From: Anaerolineae bacterium
GTDB lineage: Bacteria > Chloroflexota > Anaerolineae > DTPP01
Direction: 5' to 3'
Length of the DNA: 64,000 nt
Assembly (NCBI GenBank): GCA_049969295.1
Contig: JBMFPD010000001.1
Span: 332 to 64,331 of the forward strand
Of this stretch, positions 6,331 to 61,781 are shown piece after piece. The position numbers and the translations under genes were made by a program. Numbering within the stretch: position 1 is the stretch's first letter; each line of letters starts with the position of its first letter. Below the pieces are notes generated by a model, which searched no databases, was not told the origin of the DNA, and saw only the letters and a program-made list of their open reading frames with translations.

Positions 6331-6342
6331 AGGAGACGGGCG

Positions 6343-6969: not shown

Positions 6970-7012
6970 GGCGCACGGGGCTAGCCACGGCAGAGGGAAG
7001 AGGGGGTTGACG

Positions 7013-43984: not shown

Positions 43985-45559
43985 CTACTCGCCAGCCCTG
44001 CGGACGCCGTACAGCCATTCGTGGTAGAGGGGGGCCAGGTCCCGGCCCGCGAGGCCCTCAGCCACCCGCAGGAAGTCCTGTCCCCGGGCGATGCGGTAGC
44101 GGTACTGGGCCGCGTAGTGCCGCAGGACCGCCAGGAACGCCTCGTCGCCCACCGCGGTGCGCAGGGCGTCCAGGAAGAGCGCACCCTTCTGGTAGACGAT
44201 GACCCCGTAGTCCGCCCGGGGGAAGGCCCCTGAAGGCTGGGCCACGGCCGCATCCCGTCCCTCCCGCACCAGGTTCTCGTACCGCTGGCGGAAGGCTTCC
44301 AGGATGCCTTTCGCCTCCTCCGGGCCGTGCACGTGCTCGTAGTACAGGACGGTGCTGTAGTTGGCCAGGGCCTCGTCCAGCCAGGGCTCATCCACCTGGT
44401 CGTTGCCCACCAGGTTGTACCACCACTGGTGGGCCATCTCGTGGGCCACTACGAACTCGGTGAAGGGGTCCTCCCGCGCGTACAGGGCCTCGGCCGCCAG
44501 GATCAGGCCCGGGTACTCAATCCCTGCCGCGCCGATCTCCGCCTCCGCCAGGTCCAGTTCGCGGTAGGGGTAGGGGCCGAAGAGGTCCCCGTAGAGGCGG
44601 AAAGCCTGCCGCGCGTAGTCCAGCACCGCCTGTCCCATCGCCGCGTGTCCGGGGAAGTAGAAGGAGCGGAGGCGCGTCCCGGAGGGATCGTCCTCCGTGA
44701 CGATCTGGTAGTCCCGGCTCAGGGCCAGGTTGAACTCCCGCGCCGGGCCGCTCACCAGGGTCCAGACGTGCCGGCCCTCCCTCCCGGCCTCGTCCACCAC
44801 GCTCCCCGTGGACGCCAGGATGTACCCCTCCGGGGCCTCCCAGACCACGCGGTAGAAGGCCATGTCGCTGTAGACCATGTCCCCGTGCTCCGGAGGGATC
44901 TCCTCGTTCCAGCCCGTCTCGTCGTAGACGGCCACCAGGGGGTAGAAGCCAGCCAGGGTCCAGGTGCCCTGGTGGACCCCGAACGCGCCGTACCCGCGGC
45001 TGGGCTCGCTGGAGACCTCTGTGCGGAAGGAGAAGGTCAGGGCGAGGCCCTGGCCCGGCGACAGGGGCGAGGGGAGGGGCAGGCGGGCCACGCTCCCCTC
45101 CTGGCGCAACTCGGGCTGGACGGCGTGGCCATCCACCTCCACGGAGGCAAGGTGCAGGCCAGCGCCAGGGCCCATCAGGTTGGGGTAGAGGCGCAGGACC
45201 AGCATGTCCAGCGGCACCGACTCGGTGTTGGTGTACCAGATGGACGCTTGCCCGAGGATGACACGCTCATCTTCCACCAGGGTGGCCGTGATGGCGTATC
45301 GGGTGGCCTGGCCCAGGAGGTCCAGGTCTCCCTGGAAGGAGGGAAGGAGAGCGGCGGCCTGGTCCTCCCCCTGCACCGGAGGCGGAGCGCTGGGGATGGG
45401 CATCGGGGCAGAGGCCGTGGGGGTTGCCCGGGGCGTGGGCTCTGCCGGTCCCGTGCTCTGGCAGGCGGCTGTGGCAACGAGCAGCACCGCCCCCGCCAGG
45501 GCAAGGAGGGAGCGCGAAAGGATGATGGAGGAAGGTGGGTGCTGGCGGGCCTCCCTCAT
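43985..45559 (-). CDS. M1-family zinc aminopeptidase, secreted lipoprotein
   Basis: HEMAHQWW...E zinc-binding motif. The N-terminus MREARQHPPSSIILSRSLLALAGAVLLVATAAC is a signal peptide plus lipobox. The start overlaps the upstream stop in ATGA. Confidence 0.8.
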   Translation of the reverse strand: MREARQHPPSSIILSRSLLALAGAVLLVATAACQSTGPAEPTPRATPTASAPMPIPSAPPPVQGEDQAAALLPSFQGDLDLLGQATRYAITATLVEDERVILGQASIWYTNTESVPLDMLVLRLYPNLMGPGAGLHLASVEVDGHAVQPELRQEGSVARLPLPSPLSPGQGLALTFSFRTEVSSEPSRGYGAFGVHQGTWTLAGFYPLVAVYDETGWNEEIPPEHGDMVYSDMAFYRVVWEAPEGYILASTGSVVDEAGREGRHVWTLVSGPAREFNLALSRDYQIVTEDDPSGTRLRSFYFPGHAAMGQAVLDYARQAFRLYGDLFGPYPYRELDLAEAEIGAAGIEYPGLILAAEALYAREDPFTEFVVAHEMAHQWWYNLVGNDQVDEPWLDEALANYSTVLYYEHVHGPEEAKGILEAFRQRYENLVREGRDAAVAQPSGAFPRADYGVIVYQKGALFLDALRTAVGDEAFLAVLRHYAAQYRYRIARGQDFLRVAEGLAGRDLAPLYHEWLYGVRRAGE

Positions 45560-47649
45560 CGTCCGAAGGCCAACCCTTCTACCTGGACCCGCCACCGGAG
45601 GTCCAGCGCCAGGCTTTCCGTTGCCGCGCTTCCCCCTAGAGGCTCCACGCGGTAGGTGTAGTAGCCCCACTCCGTGGTGATGGGGGTCACGGCCGAGATG
45701 GCCAGCACGGCCTGGGTCACTTCCCGGCCCAGGCCCAGGAGGTCCAGGGAACCGCGGTTTTCGGCATCCAGGGGCATCTCTCGGACGCGGAGGTCGCCCC
45801 CGGCCCATTCCACCAGTTGCACGGCGAAGCCCTGAGGCACGAAGTTGGTGGAGCGCACGAAGCCCCGCGCCTCCCATGTGGGGTCTTCCTCCTCGGCGCC
45901 GTCGTGGAAGCCGATCTCCGGGATGGCGATGTCGTCCAGGGCCCAGCCCGTGGCGTGGTAGGCGTCGTCGGTCACGTACTCAAAGCGCAGGAGGATTTCC
46001 CTCCCGGCGTAGGGGGTGAGGTCCATGCGTTCGTCCACCCAGCGGGGCTCGTCCCCCTTGCGGCCGCCGCTCACGCCGGTGTAGCCCCAGCCGTAGTTGT
46101 TGCCCATGGGGTTCTTGTCGCTCATGTGGGCCCCTCGGAGAAGGGTCCAGGTTGCCCCGCCGTCGGTGGAGACGGCCACGTAGCCGAAGTCCCATCCGTC
46201 CTCAATCTGGTACCAGGTGCGGAAGGAGAGGGTGGCCTGGGAGACGCCCCGCAGGTCCACGGGCCGCGTGAGGGTGATGTCGCGCTGGTTCGCCCGCCCG
46301 GAATACCAGAAAGCCCGGCCCTCCGCGGGGAACGTCGGCACGAGCCTGGTGCGGGACGAGCCGTCAAAGCGGATCGTGAGGTCCACGGCTCCATCCCTGG
46401 GTGGGGCGAGGAGGAGGTAGTCGGTGCCGTACTGGTGGACGGTCCCTTCGCCGTGGGCCGGGTAGCGGGTGATGCGCCGGCCCACCCGGACCGTCCCGTG
46501 GCGGCGGGCATAGGAGACGCTGCCGAAGGGGAGCCTCCTCTGGTCTTCGCGCGGGACGATGTTGGCCATGGCCCACTGGCGGAAGAAGGTGTCGAAGTCC
46601 ACCCCCAGGCGCGAGAGCACGGCGTCGTACCCGGCGATGCCGGTGCGCGGGTCGGTGGCCAGGGCGCGCAGCGCCTCCTCGCCGAAGCGGTCGTAGAAGT
46701 AGGCTGCGAAGAGGTACGAGGCCCCGTAGTGCACGGGCGAGCGGCCCATCTCGTCGGTCCAGGCGTTCAGTTGGGTGTCGGGGAAGAGGTCAAAGACGAC
46801 CTCGGACCCATCGGTGGTGTAGCCGTTCAGGGTCATGGCCAGTTCCGAAAGGCCCTCCTCCACCCAGCCATCCTCGCCGCGGTTCTGGTTCCACTGGATC
46901 ATGTGCTGGAACTCGTGGGCCAGCACCGCGCTGTAGAGGTCCGTGCCTGGCGTCAGGGTGTCCAGGTTGACGTAGAAGATCTCCTTCTCGTTGGATTGGG
47001 GGTGGACGGCCCTGGGGACCTCGTCCACGCTGGAGAAGTACCCACCCACGCCCGGGACCCGGCCGTTGAAGATGTGCACCCGCGCCTCGCCATCTATGCC
47101 TGGCGACCACTCCGAGCCGAAGTAGCGCCGGTTCGTCTCGTAGATGGCGTCAAAGGCCATCCCCTGCCGCCGCAACTGGTCCTCGTCGGGGGGATCTCGC
47201 AGGTCCACCTGGACCCAGAAGTAGGCGTGCTGGGAGATGTAGCGCAGTTCGGCCTCGGCCTGGAAGAAGCGGGGCTGCTCGGGGCGGCTGTGGTCCACCA
47301 CCCAGAACGCCTCTCGGTCGCCGAGGGAGCGCTCCGGCGGTTCGGTGTGGGCTGGCCTGAGGGCCTCAGGGGGCACCCCCTTCAGGCGGCGGGCCAGGTC
47401 CCCCAGGTCGCGCACGGGCAGGTCCGCCGCCAGGGCCTGGGCCAGAGCCGCTTCGTCCTCAGGGGAGGGGGGCAGGTGCAGGTCGGGGATGGCCTTGGGG
47501 ACCCGTTCTGGGAGCAGGAAGGTGGCTTGCTCCCGCACGAGCCTGTACCCCGCGTACCCGCCGAGCCCCAGGCAGGCCACGAGGCACCCGCAGCAGGCGA
47601 GGATTGCCAGGGCGACAATGGTGAGCCAGCGTGGAGCAGGTTTTCGCAT
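45556..47649 (-). CDS. M6-family (immune inhibitor A-like) metalloprotease with an N-terminal membrane anchor
   Basis: HEFQHMIQW motif and an N-terminal hydrophobic segment. Confidence 0.75.
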   Translation of the reverse strand: MRKPAPRWLTIVALAILACCGCLVACLGLGGYAGYRLVREQATFLLPERVPKAIPDLHLPPSPEDEAALAQALAADLPVRDLGDLARRLKGVPPEALRPAHTEPPERSLGDREAFWVVDHSRPEQPRFFQAEAELRYISQHAYFWVQVDLRDPPDEDQLRRQGMAFDAIYETNRRYFGSEWSPGIDGEARVHIFNGRVPGVGGYFSSVDEVPRAVHPQSNEKEIFYVNLDTLTPGTDLYSAVLAHEFQHMIQWNQNRGEDGWVEEGLSELAMTLNGYTTDGSEVVFDLFPDTQLNAWTDEMGRSPVHYGASYLFAAYFYDRFGEEALRALATDPRTGIAGYDAVLSRLGVDFDTFFRQWAMANIVPREDQRRLPFGSVSYARRHGTVRVGRRITRYPAHGEGTVHQYGTDYLLLAPPRDGAVDLTIRFDGSSRTRLVPTFPAEGRAFWYSGRANQRDITLTRPVDLRGVSQATLSFRTWYQIEDGWDFGYVAVSTDGGATWTLLRGAHMSDKNPMGNNYGWGYTGVSGGRKGDEPRWVDERMDLTPYAGREILLRFEYVTDDAYHATGWALDDIAIPEIGFHDGAEEEDPTWEARGFVRSTNFVPQGFAVQLVEWAGGDLRVREMPLDAENRGSLDLLGLGREVTQAVLAISAVTPITTEWGYYTYRVEPLGGSAATESLALDLRWRVQVEGLAFGR

Positions 47650-47665: not shown

Positions 47666-48949
47666 TCAACTTTCCCGCCGGATGCGGGCCCCCAGGGCCT
47701 GCAACTTGAGGTCCACCCGCTCGTAGCCGCGGTCTATCTGGCCGATGTTGCGGATGACGCTCTCGCCCTCGGCGCACAGGCTGGCGATGAGGAGGGCCAT
47801 GCCGGCGCGGATGTCGGGGCTCTCCAGGCGCTCCCCGTGCAGGCGGGCTGGCCCCACCACCACCGCCCGGTGGGGGTCGCAGAGGATGATGCGCGCCCCC
47901 ATGGCGATCAGTTTGTCCACGAAGTAGAGGCGGCTCTCAAACATCTTCTCGTGGATGAGGACGGTCCCCCGCGCCTGCGTCGCCACCACCAGGGCGATGC
48001 TCATCATGTCGGCTGGGAAGGCGGGCCACGGGCCGTCGTCTATCTTGGGGATGGCCTGGAGCGCGTCGTCCACCACCCGCAGGTCCTGGCCGTCGGGCAC
48101 CACCACGTCGTCGCCGCGGACCTCCACACGGACCCCCAGGCGGCCCATCACCAGGTTGATCATGCGCAGGTTCTCCACCCCGGCGTCCTTGATGACGATC
48201 TCCCCGGGCGTGACGGCCCCCAGCCCGATGAAGGAGCCCACCTCAATGTGGTCCGGGGCGATGCGCCAGCGGGTCCCGTGGAGGCGGGGGACCCCGTGCA
48301 CCACCAGGGTGTTGGAGCCGATCCCCTCAATGCGCGCGCCCATCTGGTTGAGGACGCGGGCCAGGTCCTGGACGTGGGGCTCCGAGGCCGCGTTGCGGAG
48401 GACGGTGGTCCCCTCGGCCAGGACGGCCGCCATGAGCGCGTTCTCCGTCCCTGTGACGCTGGCCTCGTCCAGGAGGATGTCTGTCCCCCTGAGCCGTTCG
48501 GCGCGCATGGTGAGGGTGGAGCCGCCGTTCTCCTCCACTGTAGCGCCCAGGGCGCTCAGGGCCAGAAGGTGGGTGTCCAGCCGCCGCCGTCCGATGACAT
48601 CGCCTCCCGGCAGGGGCACCTGGACCTCCCCCTGCCGCGCCAGGAGGGGCCCCGCCAGGAGGATGGAGCCCCGGATCTGGCGGCACAGTTCCGGATCCAA
48701 CGGAGCCTGGCGCAGGCGGCGGGCCTGCAGGGTCAGCTGGTGGTCGCCCGTCTCCTCTACCTCCACGCCGAGCGCGCGCAGGAGCGCGCACATGGTCTCC
48801 ACGTCGCGGATCCTGGGGACGTTGTCCAGGACGAGGGGTTCGTCCGTCAGGAGCGAGGCGGCGAGCATCGGCAGGGCCGCGTTCTTGTTGCCGCTGGGGT
48901 ACACTGTTCCCTGGAGGGGATATCCTCCCTCAATGACAAAGCGTTCCAT
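47666..48949 (-). CDS. murA: UDP-N-acetylglucosamine 1-carboxyvinyltransferase
   Basis: 427 aa from [27 protein letters not shown]...; the track ORF has a 100-aa spurious extension. Confidence 0.9.
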
Positions 48950-48974
48950 GGCGCTAACCTTTCCACAACGCAGA

Positions 48975-49763
48975 TTACAGGACGGTCCGCCGGGCCACGA
49001 GGCGCGCCCCTCGTCCCAGGCCCAGCGTGCGGGCGGCGTGGCCGTTGCGCTGGGCCACCTCCACCCGACCGCTGGACCCCACGAGGGCCAGGAGCGCGCC
49101 CTCCGGCACCGCTCCGTAGGCCGGCTGGAGGCCCCGGAGCAGGTGCCCCGCCACCTCAAAGGTCCAGGCCTCCGGCGGGCCATCCAAGTCTTCCGCCCTG
49201 AGGTTCGTGATGCAGTTGCCGAACCGGTCCACGTGGAGCACCTCCGCAAGCCAGGTGCCAGGGCCCGCCGCCACAGGCTTCGGGAGGTCCAGGCGCACCG
49301 GATCGGAGATGCGGGGGCCCAGGGCTTCCAGGGGCACGCCCCGTGCCAGGTGTGCGGCCACGGGCGCGAAGAGATCCCGGCCGTGGAAGGTCCGGCTCAC
49401 CGGCTGGCGGAAGAACCGGCTCTCCGTCAGGTGGACGACGGCCTTCTCCCCCGGCAGGTCCAGGGCGGGGGTCAGCACGCCGTTGTCCGGGCCGACGAAG
49501 AGGGCCTGCTCCGTACGGACGGCGATGGGCCGGCGCTCCGTGCCGACGCCAGGGTCCACCACGACGAGGTGGATGGTCTGGGGTGGGAAGCAGGGCAGGA
49601 TGCCCTCCAGCAGGAGGGCTGCGTACAGCACGTCCTGGGGCGGCACCTGGTGCGAGACGTCCACGAGCACGGCATCGGGCGCCAGGCCCAGGATCACCCC
49701 CTTCATGGCCGCCACATAGGTGTCTTCCAGGCCGAAGTCAGTGGTGAGCGTCACGATCCGCAC
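48975..49763 (-). CDS. S-adenosyl-L-methionine hydrolase (adenosine-forming; DUF62 / fluorinase-chlorinase-like family)
   Basis: ..[27 protein letters not shown].. The GTG at 49763 follows GGGGGA; in-frame alternatives are at 49784 and 49811. Confidence 0.75.
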
Positions 49764-49859
49764 AGATGTTCCCCCCGGGGGCATTGTACCGCAGGCGGTG
49801 AGGGGCGTCAACCGGGCCGCGGCCCACCGCCCCCGGTTCCGCGCGCCCCTCCTGCCCCC

Positions 49860-52697
49860 TCACCTTTCACGCACTTCCACTGGCCCCAGAAGGGCACGGT
49901 CGCCCAGGGTCTGGCCGTCCTCGTCCACGGCGGGCAGCCGGGGCATCCCCGGGCGCTCGGCATCGTACCACCCCATTTCCAGGGAATAGACCCCGGCCTC
50001 GTCCGGGATCTGCAGGGCGTACTCCTCCGCCACCACCTCTGGCGGAAACCAGGTGTTGGTGGGCCTTGCTCCGCCCCCGGGGACGCGGTCCACACCCGCC
50101 CGGACCCGTCCGTCGGGGCCCAGGAGGTGCACGAAGGCGGTGTAGGAGCGGTCCATCTCCCCCACCGCCTGCCAGTAGAGGGTGACCGTCAGCACCCCGC
50201 CCGGCCGGGCCGGCCCCTGGTGCAAGTCCGCCCCCAGGAGGAGGATGCCCTCCCCGAACCGCACGCGCAGGGGCACCTGGGGCGAGGGGGGCGCGAACAC
50301 GCGCGCCGTGGGCAGGACCCGCACCGCGCCCAGGTCCAGAGGGGCAGGGGTGAGGGGCTGGCCCCCTTGTTCCACCCAAGCCTGCAGCCGGACCTCCCCT
50401 TCCTGGGCCTGCAGGGGGACCCGCACCCGGTGCCGCGTGCGGAAGGCGTGCCCCGGAGGCCAATCTCCAACCTCCCGGCCCGGGCCGGCCAGGGGCCGCG
50501 TCTCCTCAGCCAGCACCCTGCCTCCCTGCTCCCAGGCCAGGCGCAGGGCAAGGCCGGGCTCTGGCCGCCCCTGCACCTGCCAGAAGAGGGACGCCTCCAC
50601 GAAGGCCCCACCTTGTGCGGACGCGGGCTCCAGCCCTGCCCCCAGGAAGCGCAGGCCCCCCACGTCCGCCCGTGCGGGTGTGGGGATGGGGAGGCGTTCG
50701 GGCGCGAGGGCCCCCGCTTCTGGCCCTACCTCCATCGGGCCCACGCAGGCCTCCTTCCCCGCGGGCGCGCCGGCTGCATCCAGGACGTCCAGGCCGTCGG
50801 GGGCCTCGTCTGCGTAGACCTTGAGGCAGAGGGAGTAGGGGCCCGGTGGCGTGCCGGGCTCCGCCGGGAGCGCGTACTGGGCCAGGACCACCCTCCCCAC
50901 CTCCCAGCGGAAAGCGGGGTAGGTGAAGGCTGTGGGCCGGCGGTCCTCCCGCCCCCAGGCGAGGCCCTCCGCGTCCCGCAGCGTGAGCGCGACCGTCCAA
51001 TCGGCGGAGAGGGCTTCCTTCGCCCGCCAGTAGGCTGCCACGTGGCCTGGCCTCTCCTGGTCCCACCCCAGGAACTCCAGCCGCCCGCCGAAGTCCACCG
51101 CCACGGGGTGCTGGATGGCCGGCTCCAGGGGCACGGCGAACCCCTCTGGCAGGGCGTAGTGCCGCAGTCCTACGTGCCAGAAAGTCCGCCCCACAGGGAG
51201 GGGCTCGCCCCACCGCTCCAGCATGTAGGCCACCACGCCCGTGGGGTCCACCACCTCATCCTGCCAGAGGACCAGCCACGCACCCCGCTTGCCCGCGGTG
51301 GCCCGGTTCACGCTCTCCGCGGCCTCCCACCCCAGGGGGTGCCGGGCGTCCAAGATGCGCAGGGGTGGGATCGGCACGCGCCTGGAGCCCGGCCAGTAGA
51401 CATCCCACACGGGGGCCATGTGGCCCGACACGAGGAGGATGGCTTCGTCGGGGGCGGCGTGCTCCCGCACGAACTGAGCCACGCCCCGGAAGTCCGGCTT
51501 GGTGAAGGCCGGGTCGGCGTAGAGGTTCCGGTCGGCGTAGCCCGCAACCCCCAGGACGAAGGCCAGGCCGGCGGCGGCGACGGCCCTCGCCCAACCTTCT
51601 CCCGGCGCCCGCCCCTTCCCAGCGGCGGCTCCAGCGAGGAGGAGCAGCGCGCCCGGCGAGGCGACCATGGCGTAGCGGGGGTTGAACTTGGGCACACGGT
51701 AGGCCAGACCCAGGAGGAGGGCGACCGGCACGGCCCCGTAGAGGAGGGAGAACCCAAGGCCCCAGGCGTCTCCACGCCCCCTGGCGGCGCGCCAGGCCCA
51801 GATTCCCGCCGCCAGGGCCAGGACAGCCAGGTACGGGGTCAGGAGGCGCATCCCCTCCGCCTCCAGGATGGACTCGCCTCCCAGGAAGGCCAGGGCCACC
51901 TTGCGGGCCGCCTCGTCCAGTTTGAGGGTGCCGGGCCAGTAACTCGTATCCTCATGCCAGCGCTGCACCAGGAAGGGCAGCCAGGGGAGGTAGATCGCGA
52001 CCACCGCGGCCACCGCGCCCAGCGCCTGCCAGAGTTGCCCCGCGCGGGCAAACGTCGCAGGGACGACGCGTGCGTCGCCCCTCCTGCCCGCCAGGCCCCA
52101 GGCCAGGGCGAAGCAGGCGTGGAAGGCCAGGACGAAGAAGGCGAAGTAGTGGGTGTAGACGGCCGCCCCCATCAGGGCCACATAGGGGAGCCAGGCGCGC
52201 CAGGCCCTGGCCCTGCCTTCCCGAAGGCAGGCCCAGAAGAGGCCGCTTGCCGCCAGGCAGAGGAGGGTGACCCAGGTGTAGTTGCGCGCCTCCTGCGCGT
52301 ACCACAAGTGCAGGGGGGAGACCGCCCCCAGGAGGGCCGCCAGGAGGCCCGCCCCGCGGGAGCCAGCCACGCGCCGGCCGACCCAGGCCAGGCAGGGCAC
52401 GAGGAGCACCCCGGCGAAGGCCGAGGGGAAACGCAGCGCGAACTCCCCCGCGCCGGCCAGGCGGACCCAGCCCCACACGGCGTAGTAGTAGAGGGGCGGC
52501 TGGATGTCGTCGGCGGTCCAGGCGGTGAGGTCTGGCAGGGAAAGAGTGGCGAGGTAGGCGGTCACGCCCTCGTCGTACCAGAGGCTCTGCGCCTCCAGGC
52601 GGTACATACGCAGGGCGAAGGCCAGAAGGCACAGGGCCAGGAGGGCCGCCGTCCAGAACCGGCCGTGCGCCCGCGAGGCCCCATCTTGCCGGGTCAT
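49860..52697 (-). CDS. GT-C fold glycosyltransferase (GT39/GT83 PMT/ArnT-like) with a large C-terminal tandem-repeat domain
   Basis: Multi-pass N-terminus with the DE motif (LWYDEGV). 945 aa from MTRQDGASRAHGRFW.... The start overlaps the upstream stop in ATGA. Confidence 0.75.
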   Translation of the reverse strand: MTRQDGASRAHGRFWTAALLALCLLAFALRMYRLEAQSLWYDEGVTAYLATLSLPDLTAWTADDIQPPLYYYAVWGWVRLAGAGEFALRFPSAFAGVLLVPCLAWVGRRVAGSRGAGLLAALLGAVSPLHLWYAQEARNYTWVTLLCLAASGLFWACLREGRARAWRAWLPYVALMGAAVYTHYFAFFVLAFHACFALAWGLAGRRGDARVVPATFARAGQLWQALGAVAAVVAIYLPWLPFLVQRWHEDTSYWPGTLKLDEAARKVALAFLGGESILEAEGMRLLTPYLAVLALAAGIWAWRAARGRGDAWGLGFSLLYGAVPVALLLGLAYRVPKFNPRYAMVASPGALLLLAGAAAGKGRAPGEGWARAVAAAGLAFVLGVAGYADRNLYADPAFTKPDFRGVAQFVREHAAPDEAILLVSGHMAPVWDVYWPGSRRVPIPPLRILDARHPLGWEAAESVNRATAGKRGAWLVLWQDEVVDPTGVVAYMLERWGEPLPVGRTFWHVGLRHYALPEGFAVPLEPAIQHPVAVDFGGRLEFLGWDQERPGHVAAYWRAKEALSADWTVALTLRDAEGLAWGREDRRPTAFTYPAFRWEVGRVVLAQYALPAEPGTPPGPYSLCLKVYADEAPDGLDVLDAAGAPAGKEACVGPMEVGPEAGALAPERLPIPTPARADVGGLRFLGAGLEPASAQGGAFVEASLFWQVQGRPEPGLALRLAWEQGGRVLAEETRPLAGPGREVGDWPPGHAFRTRHRVRVPLQAQEGEVRLQAWVEQGGQPLTPAPLDLGAVRVLPTARVFAPPSPQVPLRVRFGEGILLLGADLHQGPARPGGVLTVTLYWQAVGEMDRSYTAFVHLLGPDGRVRAGVDRVPGGGARPTNTWFPPEVVAEEYALQIPDEAGVYSLEMGWYDAERPGMPRLPAVDEDGQTLGDRALLGPVEVRER

Positions 52698-55141
52698 CGT
52701 CCGCCCCCTCCAGGGGATGCAAGGTCCAGTTCCCACTCCAGGTGGTCCGAGGGCCCCTCCTGCCCCGGCTCCTGGGCCGGGAGCCGCTCGCCCGTCTCCC
52801 ACCAGTACCAGCCGACCCACACCCGGTAGGGTGGCCGGTCCAGGGCATCCGGCAGAGGCAGCCGGCGCACGTCCTTGACCACCTCGCCTGGCCGCCAGGT
52901 GCTGGTGGGCACCGGTCCATCCCAGTTCGGCTGGGCATCGCTCTGAGAGACCCGCTCGCCCTCCCCGTCCAGGAGGTGGACGAAGGCCGTGTAGTCCCGG
53001 TCCGGCGCCGCCAGGGCCTGCCAGTAGAGGGTGAGGAGGAGCGTCCGGCCCTTGCCCTCCCGGACCACCCCAAGGTCGTACCCCAGAAGCCGGACCAGCC
53101 CCCCGAACTCCCCCCGCAGGGGGTGGTCCGGTGTCAACTTCGTGTCGGGCGGCACCAGGTGCAGGCGTCCCCCCGTCCGTGCAAACCGATGCAGGCGTAT
53201 CCAGGTGCCGCCGTCATAAAGACGCCAGGGGTAGTCCGCCTGTTCCACTTCCACAGGCAGGCGGCGCCATCCCGCAGCCCAATCTCCCTCCTCCACGACA
53301 CCCACCGCCACCGTGAACCAGTCCCCCAGGTCCCAGGGGACCGTGTCCACCATGACCACTTCGCCGAGCCGCCAGCGGCTGGTAGGGTACCAGAGGAGGG
53401 CCGCCAGGGGACGCTGGGTGGTATCCTCCACCACATCCCCCTCCCGGTTGAGGAAGAAGGGATAGAGGCGCAGGTCCTCCTCCAGGGGTTCCAGGGCCTG
53501 CCAGTACATGCGCAAGGACGTGAGGCGCCACCTGGGCTGGTCCACCAGGTCGAACCCCAGGAGGCGCAGGCGGCCGCCGAAGGTGATGGAAAGGGGGTAC
53601 TGGGGCGCGGGGTTGGGCGCTCGCAGGAAGTCGTAGAAGGCGTCCGGGAGGGTGTGGCGGCAGTCGGCCTGGCCCGCAGCCCGGGCAAGCAGAAGGTACC
53701 CGTCCGCGGCGTCCTGCACGCAGAAATCCTTCCTCAGAAGGCCCATCACGGCCTGGTGGAAGTCGTTGGGGTGCATGTCGGTGGTGGAGGCCGCATCCAC
53801 CAGGACGTAGTCGGCGTCCAGGACCACCGGGAAGTCGTAGATAACCTCCCGGTGGCTCAGGTGCGGGTTGAGGGGCGGCGTGGTGGAAAGGCGTGCCTCC
53901 GGGGGGATCTGCGCCGCGAAGCGGGCGAGGAGGCGGTGGTGCGGCGTCACCTCCGGCCAGGCCACCTCAGGGTTCAGGGGGGTGAAGCCCCACATCCGCT
54001 GCGCCAGGAGGCACCAAGCCAGGAGCCACGCGCACACACCCCCGAGGACCCGGGAGCGCGGCCAAGAGGTCCAGGCTGCCACCCTCCGCACGCACCAGGC
54101 CGCGCCGGTGATGGCCCCGGCCACGGCGAAGGGGACGACGAGGGCCGAGTAGTGGTACTCGCCGGAGTACATGGCCGGGTAGTCGGCCAGGAGGTTGGCC
54201 GCCAGGATCGGTGCGGCCAGGGCCAGTTCCAGAGGGCCGAGGACCGGGAAGAAGCCCACCGGGGCCAGGATGCGCGCCCAGTAGGCCAGCCGGTCTTCTG
54301 TGACGAGGAGCGCGAGCACCTCCCCTGGCTTCGTCGCCAGGGCCTGGAGGATGCCCCCGAGCCCGCCGCCCAGGTGCGCGTAGCGCTTGAAGTAAATGGA
54401 CCCTTCCGCCGCCACAGGGCCGTAGAACTGGCGACTGGAGTGGGCGATGATGCCGAAGGTGGCCACGGCAAACCAGGCAAGGCCGGCCGCGGCCACCGCG
54501 GCCCCGGCCTTCCGGTCCCGCACGACGAAGAAGAGGTACAGCCCCAGCATGAAGACCACCAGGGCCACCTCTTCCTTGACCGTGAGGCTCAGGAAGGTGA
54601 AGAGGGCGAGCCACCCGTGCCGCCGCCCCTCGCCGAAGTATAGGGCCGCGAGGAGCAGGGGCACCGCCAGGGGGCTGGCGTGGAACTCCGTCAGGTTGGC
54701 AGCCTGGAGCGCGGGGAAAAGCAGGTACGATACGGCGAAGGCGAGCCCCGCCCTCCGGCTCCCGAGGCGCTTCCGGGCCCAGGCGTAGACCGGCACCGCC
54801 CCCAGCGCCAGGACGACCGTCTGCAGCCAGAGGAGGCTCGTCACGTCGTCGTGGAGGAGGAAGACCAGGGATATCAGGAGGAAGATGGGCTCAAAGTGGT
54901 CCGTGAGGCGGGAACTCTGGCGGCCGTCGTGGCGCGTCTCCTGGACGAACCGTCCGTGCAGCGTGTTCCAGATGGGCTGGTCCATGTTGCCCAGGTCCGA
55001 GGTGTGGGTCTGGAAGGCCTCGTGCTTGCGCACCGAGAAGGCCCCGAAGTAACCCACGTACAGGGCCATGCACAGGAGGAGGACCAGGGAGGCCCAGAGG
55101 TCCCGGGAGGGCCTCCAGGCTGACTGGGGACGGGGGGTCAT
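52694..55141 (-). CDS. DUF2079-like polytopic membrane protein with a C-terminal repeat domain homologous to that of the adjacent GT-C protein
   Basis: 815 aa from MTPRPQSAWRPSRDLWASLVLLL...; the C-terminal repeats read ..FGGxLRLLGxDL..LYWQAL..DYTAFVHLL... Overlaps both neighbours in ATGA. Confidence 0.65.
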   Translation of the reverse strand: MTPRPQSAWRPSRDLWASLVLLLCMALYVGYFGAFSVRKHEAFQTHTSDLGNMDQPIWNTLHGRFVQETRHDGRQSSRLTDHFEPIFLLISLVFLLHDDVTSLLWLQTVVLALGAVPVYAWARKRLGSRRAGLAFAVSYLLFPALQAANLTEFHASPLAVPLLLAALYFGEGRRHGWLALFTFLSLTVKEEVALVVFMLGLYLFFVVRDRKAGAAVAAAGLAWFAVATFGIIAHSSRQFYGPVAAEGSIYFKRYAHLGGGLGGILQALATKPGEVLALLVTEDRLAYWARILAPVGFFPVLGPLELALAAPILAANLLADYPAMYSGEYHYSALVVPFAVAGAITGAAWCVRRVAAWTSWPRSRVLGGVCAWLLAWCLLAQRMWGFTPLNPEVAWPEVTPHHRLLARFAAQIPPEARLSTTPPLNPHLSHREVIYDFPVVLDADYVLVDAASTTDMHPNDFHQAVMGLLRKDFCVQDAADGYLLLARAAGQADCRHTLPDAFYDFLRAPNPAPQYPLSITFGGRLRLLGFDLVDQPRWRLTSLRMYWQALEPLEEDLRLYPFFLNREGDVVEDTTQRPLAALLWYPTSRWRLGEVVMVDTVPWDLGDWFTVAVGVVEEGDWAAGWRRLPVEVEQADYPWRLYDGGTWIRLHRFARTGGRLHLVPPDTKLTPDHPLRGEFGGLVRLLGYDLGVVREGKGRTLLLTLYWQALAAPDRDYTAFVHLLDGEGERVSQSDAQPNWDGPVPTSTWRPGEVVKDVRRLPLPDALDRPPYRVWVGWYWWETGERLPAQEPGQEGPSDHLEWELDLASPGGGGR

Positions 55142-56106
55142 TCGTCCGACCGCCTCTTGGCCAGGTCCCGCACAGCGCGCTCCAGTTCCTCCAGGCGGTC
55201 CTGCTGGCTCACCACCAGTTCCGCCAGGAACCCGATGAGGAAGAGGAGGAGCCCGGCCAGGACCAGGACGCCAGCGAAGATGAAGATGGGCCTCTGCTGC
55301 TTGCCCAGGGAGAGCCACAGCCCCAGCAGGTACAGGTACAGCGCGCCCCCTACCAGGAAGCACAGGAGCCCCAGGGAGCCGAAGAAGAGCATCGGTTTGC
55401 GGCTGAAGGTCAGCAAAAACTTCACGACCAGCACGTCCAGGAAGGAGACAGGGATGCGCAGGACCCCGAACTTGGACTTCCCCCGGCGGCGCGGGTAGTA
55501 GTTGACCTGCACCTCGCCCACCCGGTACCCTTTGGAAGCGGCGATCATCAGGACGAAGCGGTGCCAGTCGGAGCGCAGGGGAAGGAGGTCCTCCACCACC
55601 TCGCGGCGGAAGGCCTTGATCCAGTTCATGTCGTGGGCCTGCACCTGGAAGAGCCAGCGGGAGACGGCGTTGTAGATGCGGGAGGCGAGGACCTTGCCGT
55701 CCCGACGGCCCTGCCGCCAGCCAGCCACCACGTCGTACCCTTCCTCCAACTTGGCCAGGAGTTTGGGGATGTCCTCGCGGGGGTCCGACTCCATGTCCGC
55801 CGGGAGGAGCATCACCACCTCGCCCCGGGCCGCCCGGAAGCCGGTCTCCAGCGCCTCCGTCAGGCCCAGGTTGCGCCGGTGGGTCAGGACCCGTACGAAG
55901 GGATGGCGCTGGGCGGCAGCCGCGGCTTCCTCAGCCGTGCCGTCGGTGGAGCCGTCGTCCACCAGGACCAGTTCCCCTTCCACCCCCAGGGCGGCGAAGG
56001 CCTGGGCCACGGCCTCCACCACCTCTCCCACGTTCCCGGCCTCGTTGTAGGCTGGGACCACCACGCTCACCCGCGGCCGCTCCTTCAGCGAAGGCTTCCC
56101 GTCCAT
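55138..56106 (-). CDS. GT2 polyprenyl-phosphate glycosyltransferase (ArnC/DPM1-like) with a C-terminal membrane anchor
   Basis: ..VSVVVPAYNEAGN..VLVDDGSTDGT.. with two C-terminal TM helices. Confidence 0.8.
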   Translation of the reverse strand: MDGKPSLKERPRVSVVVPAYNEAGNVGEVVEAVAQAFAALGVEGELVLVDDGSTDGTAEEAAAAAQRHPFVRVLTHRRNLGLTEALETGFRAARGEVVMLLPADMESDPREDIPKLLAKLEEGYDVVAGWRQGRRDGKVLASRIYNAVSRWLFQVQAHDMNWIKAFRREVVEDLLPLRSDWHRFVLMIAASKGYRVGEVQVNYYPRRRGKSKFGVLRIPVSFLDVLVVKFLLTFSRKPMLFFGSLGLLCFLVGGALYLYLLGLWLSLGKQQRPIFIFAGVLVLAGLLLFLIGFLAELVVSQQDRLEELERAVRDLAKRRSDE

Positions 56107-56110
56107 CTCC

Positions 56111-57238
56111 CTACCGACCTCCTCCCCCGACCGCCTCCAGCGCCTCGGCCAGGACCGCGACCACCCGCTCCATCTGAGCCTGCGTCAGTTCCGGGTACAT
56201 GGGCAGGGAGAGGACCTCCCGCGCCGCTCGCTCCGCCTCGGGGAAGTCCCCTTCCCGGTAGCCCAGGTCCCTGTAGACTGGCTGCAGGTGCAGGGGGATG
56301 GGGTAGTGGATGCCCACGCCGATGCCCCGCTCCCGCATGTAAGCGAAGACCCGGTCCCGCGCTGGCACCCGCACCATGTAGAGGTGGTAGACAGAACGCG
56401 CGCCCGGCAACTCCTGGGGCAGGCCCACGCCCAGGGGCCGCAGGAGCCGGGCGTAGTCCGCCGCGTGGGCCCGCCGCTCCTCGTTCCAGGCGTGCAGGTG
56501 GGGGAGTTTCGCCCGCAGGATCGCCGCCTGGAGCGCATCCAGGCGGTAGCCGTAGCCAATGACGAGGTGCTCGTACTTGCTGCGGCGGCCGTGGTCCCGC
56601 AGGAGGCGCGCCTGGTCGGCGTAGTCGTCCCGGTCCGTGGCCAGCGCGCCCCCGTCCCCGTAGCAGCCCAGGTTCTTGCCAGGGTAGAAACTGAAGCAGG
56701 CCAGGTCGCCGAAGGTTCCCACCGGCCGCCCTTTGTACGCGGCACCGTGGGCCTGGGCGGCGTCCTCAATGACCGGGAGGCCGTGCCGCCGCGCGATCTC
56801 CAGGATGGGGTCCATGTCGGCGGGCTGGCCTGCCAGGTGCACGGCGATGACCGCCCGGGTGCGGGGGGTAATGGCCGCTTCCAGTTTCGCCGGGTCCATG
56901 TTGTAGGTGCGGGGGTCCACGTCCACGAAGACCGGTCTTGCCCCCACCAGGGAGACGGCCTCCGCCGTGGCGATAAAGGTGTAGGTGGTGGTGACCACTT
57001 CATCGCCCGGGCCCACGCCGAGGATGCGCAGGGCCAGGTGCAACGCCGCCGTCCCCGAATCCACGCCGACGACGTGCCGCACGCCGCAGAAGGCAGCGAA
57101 CTCCTCCTCAAAGGCCGCCACCTCCGGCCCCAGGATGAAGTTCGCCCCATCAATGCACCGCTGGATGGCGGCGTCAATTTCGTCTTTGATGCGCAGATAC
57201 TGCGCCTTCAGGTCTACCAGAGGGATGGAATCTGCCAT
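56111..57238 (-). CDS. DegT/DnrJ/EryC1/ArnB-family PLP-dependent sugar aminotransferase
   Basis: 375 aa of the DegT family (..ILGPEVAAFEEEFAAF..; PLP-lysine region ..FSFYPGKNLG..). Confidence 0.85.
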   Translation of the reverse strand: MADSIPLVDLKAQYLRIKDEIDAAIQRCIDGANFILGPEVAAFEEEFAAFCGVRHVVGVDSGTAALHLALRILGVGPGDEVVTTTYTFIATAEAVSLVGARPVFVDVDPRTYNMDPAKLEAAITPRTRAVIAVHLAGQPADMDPILEIARRHGLPVIEDAAQAHGAAYKGRPVGTFGDLACFSFYPGKNLGCYGDGGALATDRDDYADQARLLRDHGRRSKYEHLVIGYGYRLDALQAAILRAKLPHLHAWNEERRAHAADYARLLRPLGVGLPQELPGARSVYHLYMVRVPARDRVFAYMRERGIGVGIHYPIPLHLQPVYRDLGYREGDFPEAERAAREVLSLPMYPELTQAQMERVVAVLAEALEAVGGGGR

Positions 57239-57336: not shown

Positions 57337-57744
57337 TCACTTCTCCACAACCGACTGGTACAGGGATGCCATCTCGTCGGCGATGCGCTCCCAGGCGAAC
57401 TTCTGAGCCACGTGCTGGAACCCATCCTCGCCCAACCGCCGGGCCAGGGCTGGGTCGTCCAGCACCCGCTCCAGGGCCTGGGCCAGGGCCTGGAGGGTCA
57501 TATCGTCTGCCGTGGGCCCCAGGCCCCCCGTGGTGAAGACCACCCGCGCCTTGCGCTGGATGGCCCCCAAGACCTCCCGGCCGATGGCCTCTATGTCATC
57601 GCGGACCATCACCGCCCGCTGCACCACGCCCCCCAGCCCCGTCACCCGGCGGCAGAGCCAGTGGGTGTTGGTGTCCAGGACGTCGCCGATCAAGAGTTCG
57701 TTGCCGATGGCTACGATCTCCACTGGGGTCCCCTGCGGGTCCAC
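57337..57744 (-). CDS. Chimeric 135-aa ORF: CinA-like molybdopterin-binding N-terminal domain (truncated, ~93 aa) fused in frame to a GT4-glycosyltransferase C-terminal tail
   Basis: N-terminal ..EIVAIGNELLIGDVLDTNTHWL..FTTGGLGPTADDMT..; C-terminal ..LDDPALARRLGEDGFQHVAQKFAWERIADEMASLYQ.. GTG start with the RBS GGAAGGAGG. Confidence 0.5.
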   Translation of the reverse strand: MDPQGTPVEIVAIGNELLIGDVLDTNTHWLCRRVTGLGGVVQRAVMVRDDIEAIGREVLGAIQRKARVVFTTGGLGPTADDMTLQALAQALERVLDDPALARRLGEDGFQHVAQKFAWERIADEMASLYQSVVEK

Positions 57745-58462: not shown

Positions 58463-60049
58463 CTAGCGTTCCAGGGTCCAGAAGCCGGAGCCCACGGACC
58501 GGAAGGCGTTGTTGGTCGCCAGTTCCACGAACAACGGCCCAGGGGGGCACCTGCGCACCAGGTTCACCGCCGAGTACAGCGTCTTGGCATGGACCGTCCC
58601 CTCGGGGCTGAGCCCAGCCAGTTCAATGAAGACCTCCCGCACGATCTCGGAGAGGGGGGTACCGCGCTCCTGGTGCAGGGCCCACAGGGCATCCACCGCG
58701 TCGGGATCGTCGGCCCAGATGCACATCAGGTCGTCAAACTCGCAGGAGATGGGCTGCTTCAGCATGGAGAAGGTGAGGCGCTCGCCCTCCACCTTCGCCG
58801 TGCGCACCCACAGGCGCTTCATCCGACGGGGTTTGTAGCCCAGGACCAGGACGTGAGGGTTGGCCGTGCGTTCCACCGTCACCAGCCCCCCCACCGGGAT
58901 CTGCTTCTGGGTGTACCACTCCTTCAGGCCGTAGACGTACTTGTGCTCGTGGACCACCCAGCCTTCCCACTCGGCACCGGTCTGGGCATCTACGAAGCGG
59001 ATCTGGGTCCGCTGCTTCGCCGTACCCCTGGGGAAGAGAGGACGGGTCTTCTTGGTGAGAGGCAGGGTGCCGGCCCGCCAGTGGGGGTAGTTCAGGGTCA
59101 GGGTCACCTCGTCCAGAGAGCCCAGGTCCACCGCGCCGAGCATCTCCGCCAGGCCGTTCTCGTCGTCTATCTCCAGTTCCAGGGCCAGGAGTTCCCCGGA
59201 GAGGACGGAACGGTCGCAGGAAGGGACCTCGGCCAGGAACCAGGGGAGGGGCTCCACGGCTGGCCTGGGCATCAGGCGACGCAGGTACCATTTCCGCTCC
59301 TTCTCGGTCCCTACGTCCACGAACCGTTCATCCGTCTCCAGAGCGTAATCCAAGGAGAGGACCTGGATCTCCCGCGGGACCCCGGCCGGCAGGTCCAGTT
59401 CGGGAAGGATCTCCTCTGTCCTCACCGGGCGCCCCTTGACCTCAATGAACGCCTCGGCGATGTTGAGGTGGCCGATGTGGATATCGGCCAACATGGAGCG
59501 CGCGATCCACCGGTCCCCCAGGCGCACGAACCCCGAATCCGCGCGCCCCAGCCACGCTTCCAGTCGCTCCTGCACGCGGCCCCCGAACTCCGCAAAGAGG
59601 TCCGAGGCGGGCCTGAGGGCCAGGGGGAGAGCCCCTTTTTCGTCGTCCCAGTTCAGTTTGTGGGGGGCCTGGAGCCCCGCGGCGAACTCCCGCAGGCCTC
59701 CTTGGCCGGGGAACTCCACCTGGATGACCTCAAAGGGACCGTACTCGGGGTTGAAGCCTTCCCGCACCCCCTTCACGGTGCCCGTGGCGAAGTCCAGCGC
59801 CGGGAACACGATCTGCTGGCCCACCTGGTAGCGGTTCCGGGGCTGGTAGACCGTGCCGCGCGCCAGTTCAGCACGGATGGCCTCCTCTTCCTGGCGGCAG
59901 CGCCAGGCCATCAGGGCCGCAGCCAGGTCCTCCGTGGAGAGGGGACGGCCGGCATCCAGCAGGAGATCGCGCAGATATTCCGCATCCTCAGAGTTGACCT
60001 GGAACCTCTCCAGCCAGAACTCTGGGGTCTGGGTCTTCAGCCGCAACAC
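58463..60049 (-). CDS. Hypothetical protein (528 aa), no recognisable family
   Basis: The GTG at 60049 follows AGGAGGG; the track start at 60085 lacks an RBS. High GC3 bias throughout. Confidence 0.55.
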   Translation of the reverse strand: MLRLKTQTPEFWLERFQVNSEDAEYLRDLLLDAGRPLSTEDLAAALMAWRCRQEEEAIRAELARGTVYQPRNRYQVGQQIVFPALDFATGTVKGVREGFNPEYGPFEVIQVEFPGQGGLREFAAGLQAPHKLNWDDEKGALPLALRPASDLFAEFGGRVQERLEAWLGRADSGFVRLGDRWIARSMLADIHIGHLNIAEAFIEVKGRPVRTEEILPELDLPAGVPREIQVLSLDYALETDERFVDVGTEKERKWYLRRLMPRPAVEPLPWFLAEVPSCDRSVLSGELLALELEIDDENGLAEMLGAVDLGSLDEVTLTLNYPHWRAGTLPLTKKTRPLFPRGTAKQRTQIRFVDAQTGAEWEGWVVHEHKYVYGLKEWYTQKQIPVGGLVTVERTANPHVLVLGYKPRRMKRLWVRTAKVEGERLTFSMLKQPISCEFDDLMCIWADDPDAVDALWALHQERGTPLSEIVREVFIELAGLSPEGTVHAKTLYSAVNLVRRCPPGPLFVELATNNAFRSVGSGFWTLER

Positions 60050-60093
60050 GCTCGGGAACCCTCCTGATCTCTCTTCCGCATGCACACGGGGGG

Positions 60094-60686: not shown

Positions 60687-61511
60687 GTGAGCAGCACCTC
60701 AACCCTGTTGCAAGACGCGCTGGACAAGGCCAATCTCCACTACATGCAGGTGGAAGACGAGTTTGGACTCCTCTTCCGGGGAGACTACCGCGACGACATG
60801 CTGGTGGTGGTCAAGGAGGTGGGCGACTACGCCGTGGTCAGCGCAACCCTCCCGAAGTTCCCGCCCGCGCAGGAGGAGACAGTGGCCCACAATTACCTGC
60901 AGCTCACCTTTGACGCCGACATGTTCAAACTGGCCCGCCGCTCCAACGGCGAGTACACCATCGCTGCGGAACTTCCCCTCTCCCTGGTGACACCCCGCAC
61001 CCTGGAAGCGGCCATCCGGGGGGCAGTCCACCTGGTGGACCTGCGCCCTGAGGACCTGTTCTCCCTGGAGGAGATGTCCCAGGCCAACCTCTCCCTGAGC
61101 CTGCGCACCGCCACACTCCTGGGGCCGGAGATTGAGACCGTGGAGAAGAACCTCCCCCGCCAGTTGCGGGAGGCCGGGGTCCAGCCCCAGCCAGTCCAGG
61201 GAGGGAGGGCCTACCTCTTCACCCTCAACCTCGGGGAACTGAAGATCACCATCCTCGCCGTGAGCCAGAGGGCCGTGGTGAGCCTGGTGGCCTTCTTCGC
61301 CGACCTGCAGCCCCACGGCAACCGCCTGGCCTACTACCGCAAGATGGCTGACAGCAACCTGCACATGGACGTCTGCAAGGTGGCCCTGAGCCAGGAAGAC
61401 ACCGTGGCCTTCATGTACCAGCTCCCGGTGCCAGATACAGCGGCCCTGAAACAGGCTCTGGAGCGCCTGCAGGCCTACATCCTCCTCATCGGGCTGGACC
61501 TGGCCGCCTGA
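60687..61511 (+). CDS. Hypothetical protein with two tandem YbjN-like (T3SS-chaperone-like) domains
   Basis: Internal duplication of ~125 aa; GTG start after GGAGGA. Confidence 0.55.
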   Translation: MSSTSTLLQDALDKANLHYMQVEDEFGLLFRGDYRDDMLVVVKEVGDYAVVSATLPKFPPAQEETVAHNYLQLTFDADMFKLARRSNGEYTIAAELPLSLVTPRTLEAAIRGAVHLVDLRPEDLFSLEEMSQANLSLSLRTATLLGPEIETVEKNLPRQLREAGVQPQPVQGGRAYLFTLNLGELKITILAVSQRAVVSLVAFFADLQPHGNRLAYYRKMADSNLHMDVCKVALSQEDTVAFMYQLPVPDTAALKQALERLQAYILLIGLDLAA

Positions 61512-61746
61512 GGGGGGAAAGGCCGCTGCACCTTGCGTCAGCCGTTCGGGCGACCTCACCGCTCGCCCGGTGTCGGCACAGGCCGACGCGCCCGACCTCT
61601 CCCCCGAACCCTCTCCTCACCTGCGGGGAGAGGGCTGGGGGAGGGGTCGTCGCTTCCCGCAGGGGGACGGCCTGACCACCGGACGCGGCATCCGCAAAGC
61701 CATCCGCACAAGCACAAGATGGAACCGGGCCGAACCGCAACCCAAC

Positions 61747-61774
61747 TTGTGCCCCCTTGCGCCTGTGCTATAAT
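61747..61774 (+). promoter_or_regulatory. Sigma-70-like promoter (-35 TTGTGC, 16-nt spacer, extended -10 TGCTATAAT) 8 nt upstream of the ATG, suggesting a leaderless mRNA
   Basis: Read directly from the sequence. Confidence 0.4.
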
Positions 61775-61781
61775 CCCGCCC

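Follow-up and report, generated by a model that had tools for sequence, protein, structure and literature searches.

A predicted Ig-like tandem module ends both a GT-C glycosyltransferase and its DUF2079 neighbour and is a general appendage of GT-C-type enzymes in Chloroflexota

Glycosyltransferases (GTs) of the GT-C type with immunoglobulin (Ig)-like tails that bind the acceptor are already established. The C-terminal Ig-like carbohydrate-binding module (CBM) of the GT136 enzyme ORF12, an O-antigen ribofuranosyltransferase from Citrobacter youngae, bound the unmodified acceptor O-polysaccharide (PMC11127046), and the CBMs of EmbC and AftD, as summarised in the same source, interact with acceptor polysaccharide. 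The tails described here do not overturn these ideas. They form the C-termini of two adjacent membrane proteins, a PMT_2/ArnT-like GT-C glycosyltransferase and a DUF2079 protein, encoded in a stretch of 64,000 nucleotides from an Anaerolineae bacterium (assembly GCA_049969295.1, contig JBMFPD010000001.1, positions 332 to 64,331; hereafter the window). The initial annotation of the window had both genes right in identity and position, and had noted that they end in a common repeat. E denotes the expectation value throughout:

49860–52697, minus strand: PMT_2/ArnT-like GT-C glycosyltransferase gene, 945 residues (Pfam PMT_2, 39.4 bits against a cutoff of 26.1, residues 66–199)
52694–55141, minus strand: DUF2079 gene, 815 residues (Pfam DUF2079, E 1.3e-65, residues 39–451)

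The GT-C protein runs from an N-terminal catalytic domain with multiple transmembrane (TM) helices through an α/β domain to three tail units, and the DUF2079 protein from a membrane domain of GT-C fold (residues 1–384) through an α/β domain (about residues 400–505) to two. Both genes have a GC content at third codon positions (GC3) of 0.85–0.88, a coding signature as found in high-GC genomes. The two tails are homologous, far beyond chance. BLASTP with composition correction aligns residues 805–911 of the GT-C protein with residues 670–779 of the DUF2079 protein at 44% identity over 110 aligned residues (E 4e-17), and three more cross-alignments join the tails at E 3e-10 to 1e-5. A hidden Markov model (HMM) for which the two best units served as seed recognises three units in the GT-C protein (526–657, 673–785 and 800–945) and two in the DUF2079 protein (510–640 and 665–800). 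The same five are recovered by a second HMM, made from metagenomic sequences alone and holding no sequence of the window (the outside-only HMM), which matches nothing else in the six-frame translation of the window. The profile–profile comparison on which the proposed similarity had been staked beforehand is highly significant: hhalign joins the two family alignments with a probability of 100% (E 1.7e-62), in a register that places first unit with first and last with last and treats the middle unit of the GT-C protein as an insertion. The units are as follows:

50727–51122, minus strand: unit 1 of the GT-C protein (residues 526–657); HMM E 1.6e-14; outside-only HMM E 4.8e-24 (525–659)
50343–50681, minus strand: unit 2 of the GT-C protein (residues 673–785), the most divergent; HMM E 3.3e-6; outside-only HMM E 1.4e-6 (674–772)
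49863–50300, minus strand: unit 3 of the GT-C protein (residues 800–945), the canonical terminal unit; outside-only HMM E 3e-58 (783–944)
53153–53614, minus strand: unit 1 of the DUF2079 protein (residues 510–663), a DUF2079-specific subtype; HMM E 5.4e-14; outside-only HMM E 3.9e-17 (510–600)
52727–53149, minus strand: unit 2 of the DUF2079 protein (residues 665–805), of the canonical terminal type; outside-only HMM E 3e-42 (667–794)

The initial annotation had proposed about three repeats of roughly 100 residues in each protein, beginning near residue 560 of the GT-C protein, and had quoted the motifs FGGRLRLLGFDL, FGGLVRLLGYDL, LTLYWQALAAPDRDYTAFVHLL, VTLYWQAVGEMDRSYTAFVHLL and W-x-P-G-E-V-V. 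All of these motifs are in the sequence, with LYWQA, YTAFVHLL and PTxxW carried by unit 3 of the GT-C protein. The count of three holds for the GT-C protein, whereas the DUF2079 protein has two units by HMM and structure model alike. The unit proves to be longer, about 135–150 residues with one complete β-sandwich in each according to the structure models, and the outside-only HMM moves the beginning of the repeat region in the GT-C protein to near residue 525. A third, degenerate unit in the DUF2079 protein was considered and rejected; the model consists of two sandwiches joined by a short linker, the β-strands of unit 1 spanning residues 515–662 and those of unit 2 residues 673–805.

Prediction of the structure of a single repeat, as proposed at the outset, gives a confident β-sandwich. 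Unit 3 of the GT-C protein, modelled with AlphaFold2 from a 48-sequence alignment, has a mean predicted local distance difference test score (pLDDT) of 96.2 and a predicted template modelling score (pTM) of 0.89, and forms an all-β sandwich that comprises nine strands and a single short helix. Foldseek comparison of this model with the PDB returns, at E of about 1e-4, NPC2/ML domains, the Wzt C-terminal carbohydrate-binding domain (TMq up to 0.64), RhoGDI and CARDB, and the Ig-like domains of GH2 glycosidases are also among the best structural matches; on account of this set of matches the modelled unit is assigned to the Ig-like/E-set fold class. Among the 48 divergent units W43 and W84 (unit numbering) are invariant, and L41, A45, H58, D71, P74, T81, G110, Y112, R121 and L122 are conserved in at least 90%. 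Several of the conserved residues lie, in the model, in a long loop and short helices between strands 66–72 and 89–97, a region that we regard as a plausible candidate ligand site. The unit is an autonomous β-sandwich appended to a carbohydrate-active enzyme, as in the CBM class.

In Chloroflexota the module is generally appended to GT-C-type enzymes and is not peculiar to this gene pair. When 1.84 billion cluster representatives were searched exhaustively with HMMER, 33,300 proteins matched at E≤1e-3; there were 24,924 matches at E≤1e-10 and 10,669 at E≤1e-30, and the best 150 of all these were inspected. Those that score highest are proteins of 900–1,100 residues with three matched C-terminal stretches, a few of them with four. 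Named cluster members are Chloroflexota proteins entered as ‘glycosyltransferase family 39’, ‘DUF2723’ or ‘hypothetical’; one further member, from JGI/IMG and listed with no organism, is named ‘Gpi18-like mannosyltransferase’. The precomputed Pfam field of the homologues reads ‘-’ or PF09852 only. A genome scan over one genome per GTDB species, using one peptide pattern and a 9-sequence alignment, yielded no fewer than 596 confirmed matches, and Chloroflexota (Anaerolineae, Caldilineae, Ardenticatenales and Chloroflexia) account for all of the top 80.

At 79 genome loci, 154 open reading frames (ORFs) carry one to three units, every time at the C-terminus. Pfam searches with 90 N-terminal regions of these ORFs found PMT_2 (74), PMT (29), DUF2142 (11), DUF2079 (10) and TMEM260-like (8) domains, together with one each of GT87, YfhO, PTPS_related and DUF6057, so that a GT-C domain is attached in all 90 cases scanned. 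Eight more representatives have the same host families and no Pfam match on the tail. Among the hosts we take DUF2142, DUF2079, TMEM260-like, YfhO and DUF6057 to be members of the GT-C clan; PMT, PMT_2, PTPS_related and GT87 are listed in that clan of Pfam (PMC7801869). Many of the 79 loci hold tandem arrays of two to six module-bearing paralogues. At loci L025, L028, L041, L066 and L079, all from Chloroflexota, four to six consecutive GT-C-type genes each end in one to three modules, an arrangement that points to large paralogous expansions of tailed GT-C enzymes. The tails themselves, taken as the C-terminal 420 residues of the GT-C protein and 310 of the DUF2079 protein, have no match in Pfam or NCBIfam at E≤0.1, PDB sequence searches with both unit profiles gave no match at E<0.01 (the best, at E 0.012, being a designed repeat protein), and a literature search found no paper in which GT-C enzymes of Chloroflexota are connected with a CBM. 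The domain family therefore appears to be undescribed.

The history of the units was read from an all-against-all comparison of 554 units in 121 DUF2079 and 110 GT-C proteins. The nearest match of every unit is one that occupies the same position in orthologues from other genomes, and not a unit of the neighbouring gene. Mean best scores between units at the same position are 226–250 bits for the first or only unit and 243 bits for the last unit of DUF2079 proteins, and 135, 107 and 173 bits for the first, middle and last units of GT-C proteins; unit 2 of the GT-C protein scores best, at 177 bits, with other middle units. Between the families the last DUF2079 unit is nearest to the last GT-C unit (107–132 bits), while the first DUF2079 unit is a divergent, family-specific subtype with about 50 bits to all else. 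It is this first-unit subtype alone that is kept by the DUF2079 relatives with one unit, which by HMM count make up 18 of the 121 proteins, the other 103 having two. The terminal units of neighbouring DUF2079 and GT-C genes have a mean identity of 25.1% within the same genome and 24.5% between genomes. Recent exchange or gene conversion between the terminal units of neighbours was considered and rejected, given these equal identities and the greater closeness of same-position units in orthologues, and the two observations together argue for ancient domain accretion and against recent duplication or gene conversion.

The DUF2079 protein had been regarded initially as a mere partner of the enzyme next to it. 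Its full-length model, built from 57 homologues (pLDDT 91.5, pTM 0.85), shows a membrane domain that superposes on solved GT-C enzymes. The best PDB matches are to STT3, the catalytic subunit of oligosaccharyltransferase (E 2e-7 to 3e-5, 10–14% identity); ArnT (E 4e-6, TMt 0.47–0.48), PglB, the C-mannosyltransferase DPY19 and ALG9 are matched as well, and all of these matches lie at E 2e-7 to 3e-3 with a probability of 1.0. The TM1 helix (residues 13–41) is followed by a loop helix (47–61) in which D49, L50, D54, Q55, W58, N59 and T60 are all conserved in at least 90% of the 57 homologues, and which places conserved acidic residues in the predicted first extracytoplasmic loop. The first-loop site after TM1 is where GT-C enzymes hold their catalytic acidic residues (PMC11127046; PMC7801869). 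In the PMT_2 protein the corresponding site is Y41-D42-E43, after TM1 and within SLWYDEGV (residues 38–45), and the LWxDE consensus, with its acidic D-E pair in loop 1, is kept in 30 relatives. With its GT-C fold and conserved first-loop acidic residues the DUF2079 protein is a second GT-C enzyme candidate, D49 and D54 being the candidate catalytic residues, and the locus therefore holds two enzyme candidates. A literature search found no mention of DUF2079.

The orientation of both proteins was judged from the charge of the last loop and the helices of the models, as a Kyte–Doolittle count of TM helices gave overlapping and ambiguous segments. Each has a basic loop ahead of its last TM helix (TSWPRSR, residues 358–364, in the DUF2079 protein; KGRAPGE, residues 361–367, in the GT-C protein) and the N-terminus is cytoplasmic and Arg-rich, so that the tails would lie outside the membrane by the positive-inside rule. 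To this extent the periplasmic location proposed in the initial annotation is supported.

Both genes belong to a co-oriented cassette of four genes, in the order DegT aminotransferase, ArnC-like GT2, DUF2079 and PMT_2-type GT-C, the two further members being:

55138–56106, minus strand: GT2 glycosyltransferase, a candidate polyprenyl-phosphate sugar synthase, with TM helices at its C-terminus (Pfam Glycos_transf_2, E 1.4e-30)
56111–57238, minus strand: sugar aminotransferase of the DegT/PseC/ArnB type, with which the cassette opens (NCBIfam PseC, E 1.2e-87, and ArnB, E 4.2e-77; neither score reaches its equivalog cutoff)

The junctions are tight, with ATGA start–stop overlaps at GT2/DUF2079 and DUF2079/GT-C and one gap of 4 nucleotides, and the overlaps make the four genes look like one translationally coupled unit. 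The best NCBIfam matches of the GT2 protein, all below the equivalog cutoffs, are the polyprenyl-phosphate sugar synthases ArnC (E 4.5e-35), PgfS and AglJ, with which it aligns end to end; it scores 121 bits where the equivalog cutoff is 529. Transfer by the DUF2079 protein from a polyprenyl-phosphate sugar is a candidate activity supported by this context, the ArnC-like GT2 gene lying immediately upstream with an ATGA overlap.

Related loci keep parts of this arrangement. At L080, where the DUF2079 protein is 72% identical to that of the window, the order is hexapeptide acyltransferase, GT4, DegT, GT2, DUF2079 and PMT_2, and the PMT_2 protein is 59% identical over its full length, all three units included. 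At L081 (51% identity) the order is oxidoreductase, acyltransferase, GT2, GT4, PF03706 membrane protein, DUF2079 and PMT_2. Across the 79 genome loci DUF2079 adjoins a GT-C gene like that of the window in about 11, a GT2 gene is nearby in about 22 and a DegT gene in about 12; at L045, L054 and L075 a module-bearing DUF2079 gene has no adjacent PMT_2 gene. Some DUF2079 relatives of about 1,200 residues carry an N-terminal fusion to PF03706 (LPG_synthase_TM, YbhN-like; P0305, P0307, P0326, P0348, P0356, P0360 and P0365), and at L081 a separate PF03706 gene (6023–6994) lies directly upstream of DUF2079; the cassette of the window has no PF03706 gene. The PF03706 proteins fused to or beside DUF2079 in relatives are candidate flippases.

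We consider it fairly likely, by analogy with the tailed GT-C enzymes already described, that the modules bind an extracytoplasmic polymer as acceptor, probably a glycan of the envelope, and keep it close to the active site. A nucleotide-activated keto-sugar would be aminated by the DegT enzyme, and the ArnC-like GT2 would move the (amino)sugar onto polyprenyl phosphate at the cytoplasmic face, both roles being suggested by family similarity. The lipid-linked sugar would be flipped across the membrane, and the DUF2079 and PMT_2 enzymes could each transfer sugar to the acceptor on the outside. The tandem Ig-like units, extending from the last TM helix and the small α/β domain, would bind the acceptor polymer and either concentrate it locally or place it above the active site. 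The initial annotation had likewise suggested a common acceptor- or carbohydrate-binding module, useful as a handle for finding the substrate. The precedents of C-terminal Ig-like CBMs (PMC11127046) make a binding role plausible, but the module is not special to the pair: it is common to GT-C domains of at least nine Pfam families, and therefore indicates no single common acceptor by itself, and specificity would be legible only at the level of the unit subtypes. As a handle on the substrate the module is reasonable, provided that it is the subtype of unit, and not the whole family, that is read.

Several points weigh against acceptor-glycan binding. The CBM of GT136 ORF12 was dispensable for activity under the conditions tested (PMC11127046). 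Searches of Pfam, NCBIfam and PDB sequences place the unit in no described CBM or Pfam family. The fold is generic, and proteins that are not lectins (arrestin, RhoGDI, NPC2 and Asf1) score similarly to glycan binders; because arrestins and Asf1 do so, the resemblance to glycan binders is suggestive and not specific. The cassette (49.8–57.3 kb) contains no flippase gene of the GtrA, SMR, MATE or Wzx-like kinds. Finally, the PMT, PMT_2 and TMEM260-like host families include protein O-mannosyltransferases, and the ligand could be a protein.

Were it so, both enzymes would be protein O-glycosyltransferases, with modules that recognise a protein acceptor such as an S-layer or sheath protein. Some characterised members of these host families are protein O-mannosyltransferases (PMC10214176, PMC7801869). 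Protein contacts are, besides, often mediated by Ig-like domains. We nevertheless think this account unlikely: the GT2 and DegT neighbours recall the logic by which Arn/Gtr-type systems modify glycans or lipids, glycan binders (Wzt) are the closest of the ligand-carrying structures matched over the full domain, and the module is also found on DUF2142, GT87 and YfhO-type domains, families that are presumably associated with polysaccharide work. The modules could also be structural and bind no substrate at all, acting as a rigid stalk or spacer, as a setter of distance from the membrane, or as a surface for homo- or hetero-oligomerisation by which both enzymes dock. Tandem Ig-like domains frequently serve as spacers, the part of the DUF2079 model that holds the two units matches RbmA, a scaffold protein of tandem domains, the pTM of the full-length model suggests a fixed packing of the units, and the terminal unit type is common to both adjacent proteins. 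Set against this, polar and aromatic positions (W, H, D, T, W, Y and R) are strongly conserved across very divergent hosts, more so than a spacer needs, in most loci the module sits on single enzymes with no DUF2079 neighbour, and the terminal units of neighbours are not co-evolving, being as different within a genome as between genomes (25.1% against 24.5% identity); a purely structural role seems improbable to us as well.

That the DUF2079 protein is a non-catalytic partner of the GT-C enzyme, sharing its acceptor-binding domain, agrees with the adjacency and translational coupling of the genes, with the recurrence of the pair in about 11 of the 79 loci and with a DUF2079 family that is not known to have any activity. 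It is hard to reconcile with the GT-C fold of the DUF2079 model, with its near-invariant acidic residues in the first external loop and with the module-bearing DUF2079 genes that stand apart from any PMT_2 gene (L045, L054 and L075), and we consider it very unlikely. A resemblance of the tails by chance or by composition, in high-GC sequence rich in Gly, Pro and Arg, might be entertained for a window of about 70% GC with many spurious long ORFs; it is excluded by the composition-corrected BLASTP (E 4e-17), outside-only HMM (3e-58) and hhalign (1.7e-62) values, by thousands of homologues and by the confident folding of one unit.

Taking the modules to be acceptor-binding, a wider possibility is that they form a new, very large, Chloroflexota-specific CBM family, a common adaptor by which dozens of different GT-C enzymes in each genome would dock onto one shared envelope polymer, with first, middle and terminal subtypes reading different features of that polymer; we offer this tentatively and hold it to be doubtful. 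Chloroflexota, and Anaerolineae especially, are abundant and mostly uncultured, and their envelope glycans are poorly known. If the wider possibility were true, the module as it stands could be used to probe the cell-envelope glycans of Anaerolineae, which are still largely unknown. One recognisable domain marks some 33,000 GT-C protein clusters, with two to six carriers side by side in one locus. It could serve as an annotation handle, in the form of a missing Pfam or CBM family, as a soluble, well-folding reagent with which to fish out acceptor polymers, and as a marker by which the GT-C enzymes that decorate the envelope could be told from others. For DUF2079 the model provides direct fold-level support as a GT-C enzyme candidate.

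The wider neighbourhood of the cassette is of a housekeeping kind, with genes of the shikimate pathway, PRPP (phosphoribosyl pyrophosphate) synthetase, peptidases, MurA and a SAM (S-adenosylmethionine) hydrolase. Just upstream of the cassette an ORF of 135 residues (57337–57744, minus strand) has a chimeric look: residues 8–96 match a CinA/MoCF_biosynth N-terminal domain, and residues 90–135 form the C-terminus of a GT4 glycosyltransferase, matching at E 4e-21 the intact GT4 upstream of DegT at L080. Most of that GT4 gene seems to have gone from the window, by deletion, fusion or an assembly chimera. Just downstream lie two predicted large peptidases (45556–47649 and 43985–45877, both minus strand), one with an InhA-like MAM domain (E 8.4e-33) and the other with a Peptidase_M1 domain; as called they overlap by about 320 bases, and one start codon was probably called too early. 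An ORF of 1,624 residues (47955–52829, plus strand), which lies antisense to the genes for MurA, the SAM hydrolase and the GT-C protein, was rejected as a high-GC artefact; its GC by codon position is 0.80/0.59/0.80, with none of the GC3 excess (about 0.9) of real genes. Three sizeable ORFs with gene-like codon GC (58463–60085, minus strand; 60687–61511 and 61533–63365, plus strand) have no Pfam match, and the first of them has no NCBIfam match either.

Of the described systems, that of GT136 ORF12 offers the closest precedent for acceptor binding by the tail, with an Ig-like, β-rich domain that follows the final TM helix of its GT-C enzyme; the system includes a polyprenyl-phosphate sugar synthase (PMC11127046), for which the GT2 protein is the candidate here. 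It differs in having a single copy of the CBM where two or three tandem copies are found here, with no sequence relation detected between them; in a PRPP-derived pentofuranose donor, where an aminosugar is probable here; and in a MATE flippase gene, none being recognised in the cassette of the window. The mycobacterial EmbA/B/C and AftD proteins resemble the present pair as GT-C enzymes with extracytoplasmic β-sandwich CBMs that hold the acceptor, several of them in AftD, as far as the account in PMC11127046 goes. They belong to other GT-C families and to another phylum and envelope, and their domains are absent from the sequence-search matches and from the listed fold-search matches of the unit. 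The Wzt C-terminal domain (PDB 2r5o, 6o14, 5hno and 7k2t) is cytoplasmic, sits on an ABC ATPase and is only 10–15% identical to the unit; since the Ig-like domains of GH2 enzymes score equally, its likeness is one of fold class and not evidence of homology. The gene set, as distinct from the tails, can be compared with the extracytoplasmic glycosylation systems of the ArnB-ArnC-ArnT and GtrA-GtrB-GtrX type, with which the cassette has in common a DegT/ArnB-like aminotransferase, an ArnC-like GT2 and a PMT_2/ArnT-type GT-C transferase. Its NCBIfam scores all fall far below the equivalog cutoffs, and no homologue of ArnA, ArnD, ArnE, ArnF or GtrA was seen in the cassette. Of the GT-C transferase that completes such a three-component system, two are present here: there is one GT-C-fold protein in the Arn and Gtr systems, and ArnT has no Ig-like tail, whereas the cassette of the window encodes two, each ending in tandem units of predicted Ig-like fold.

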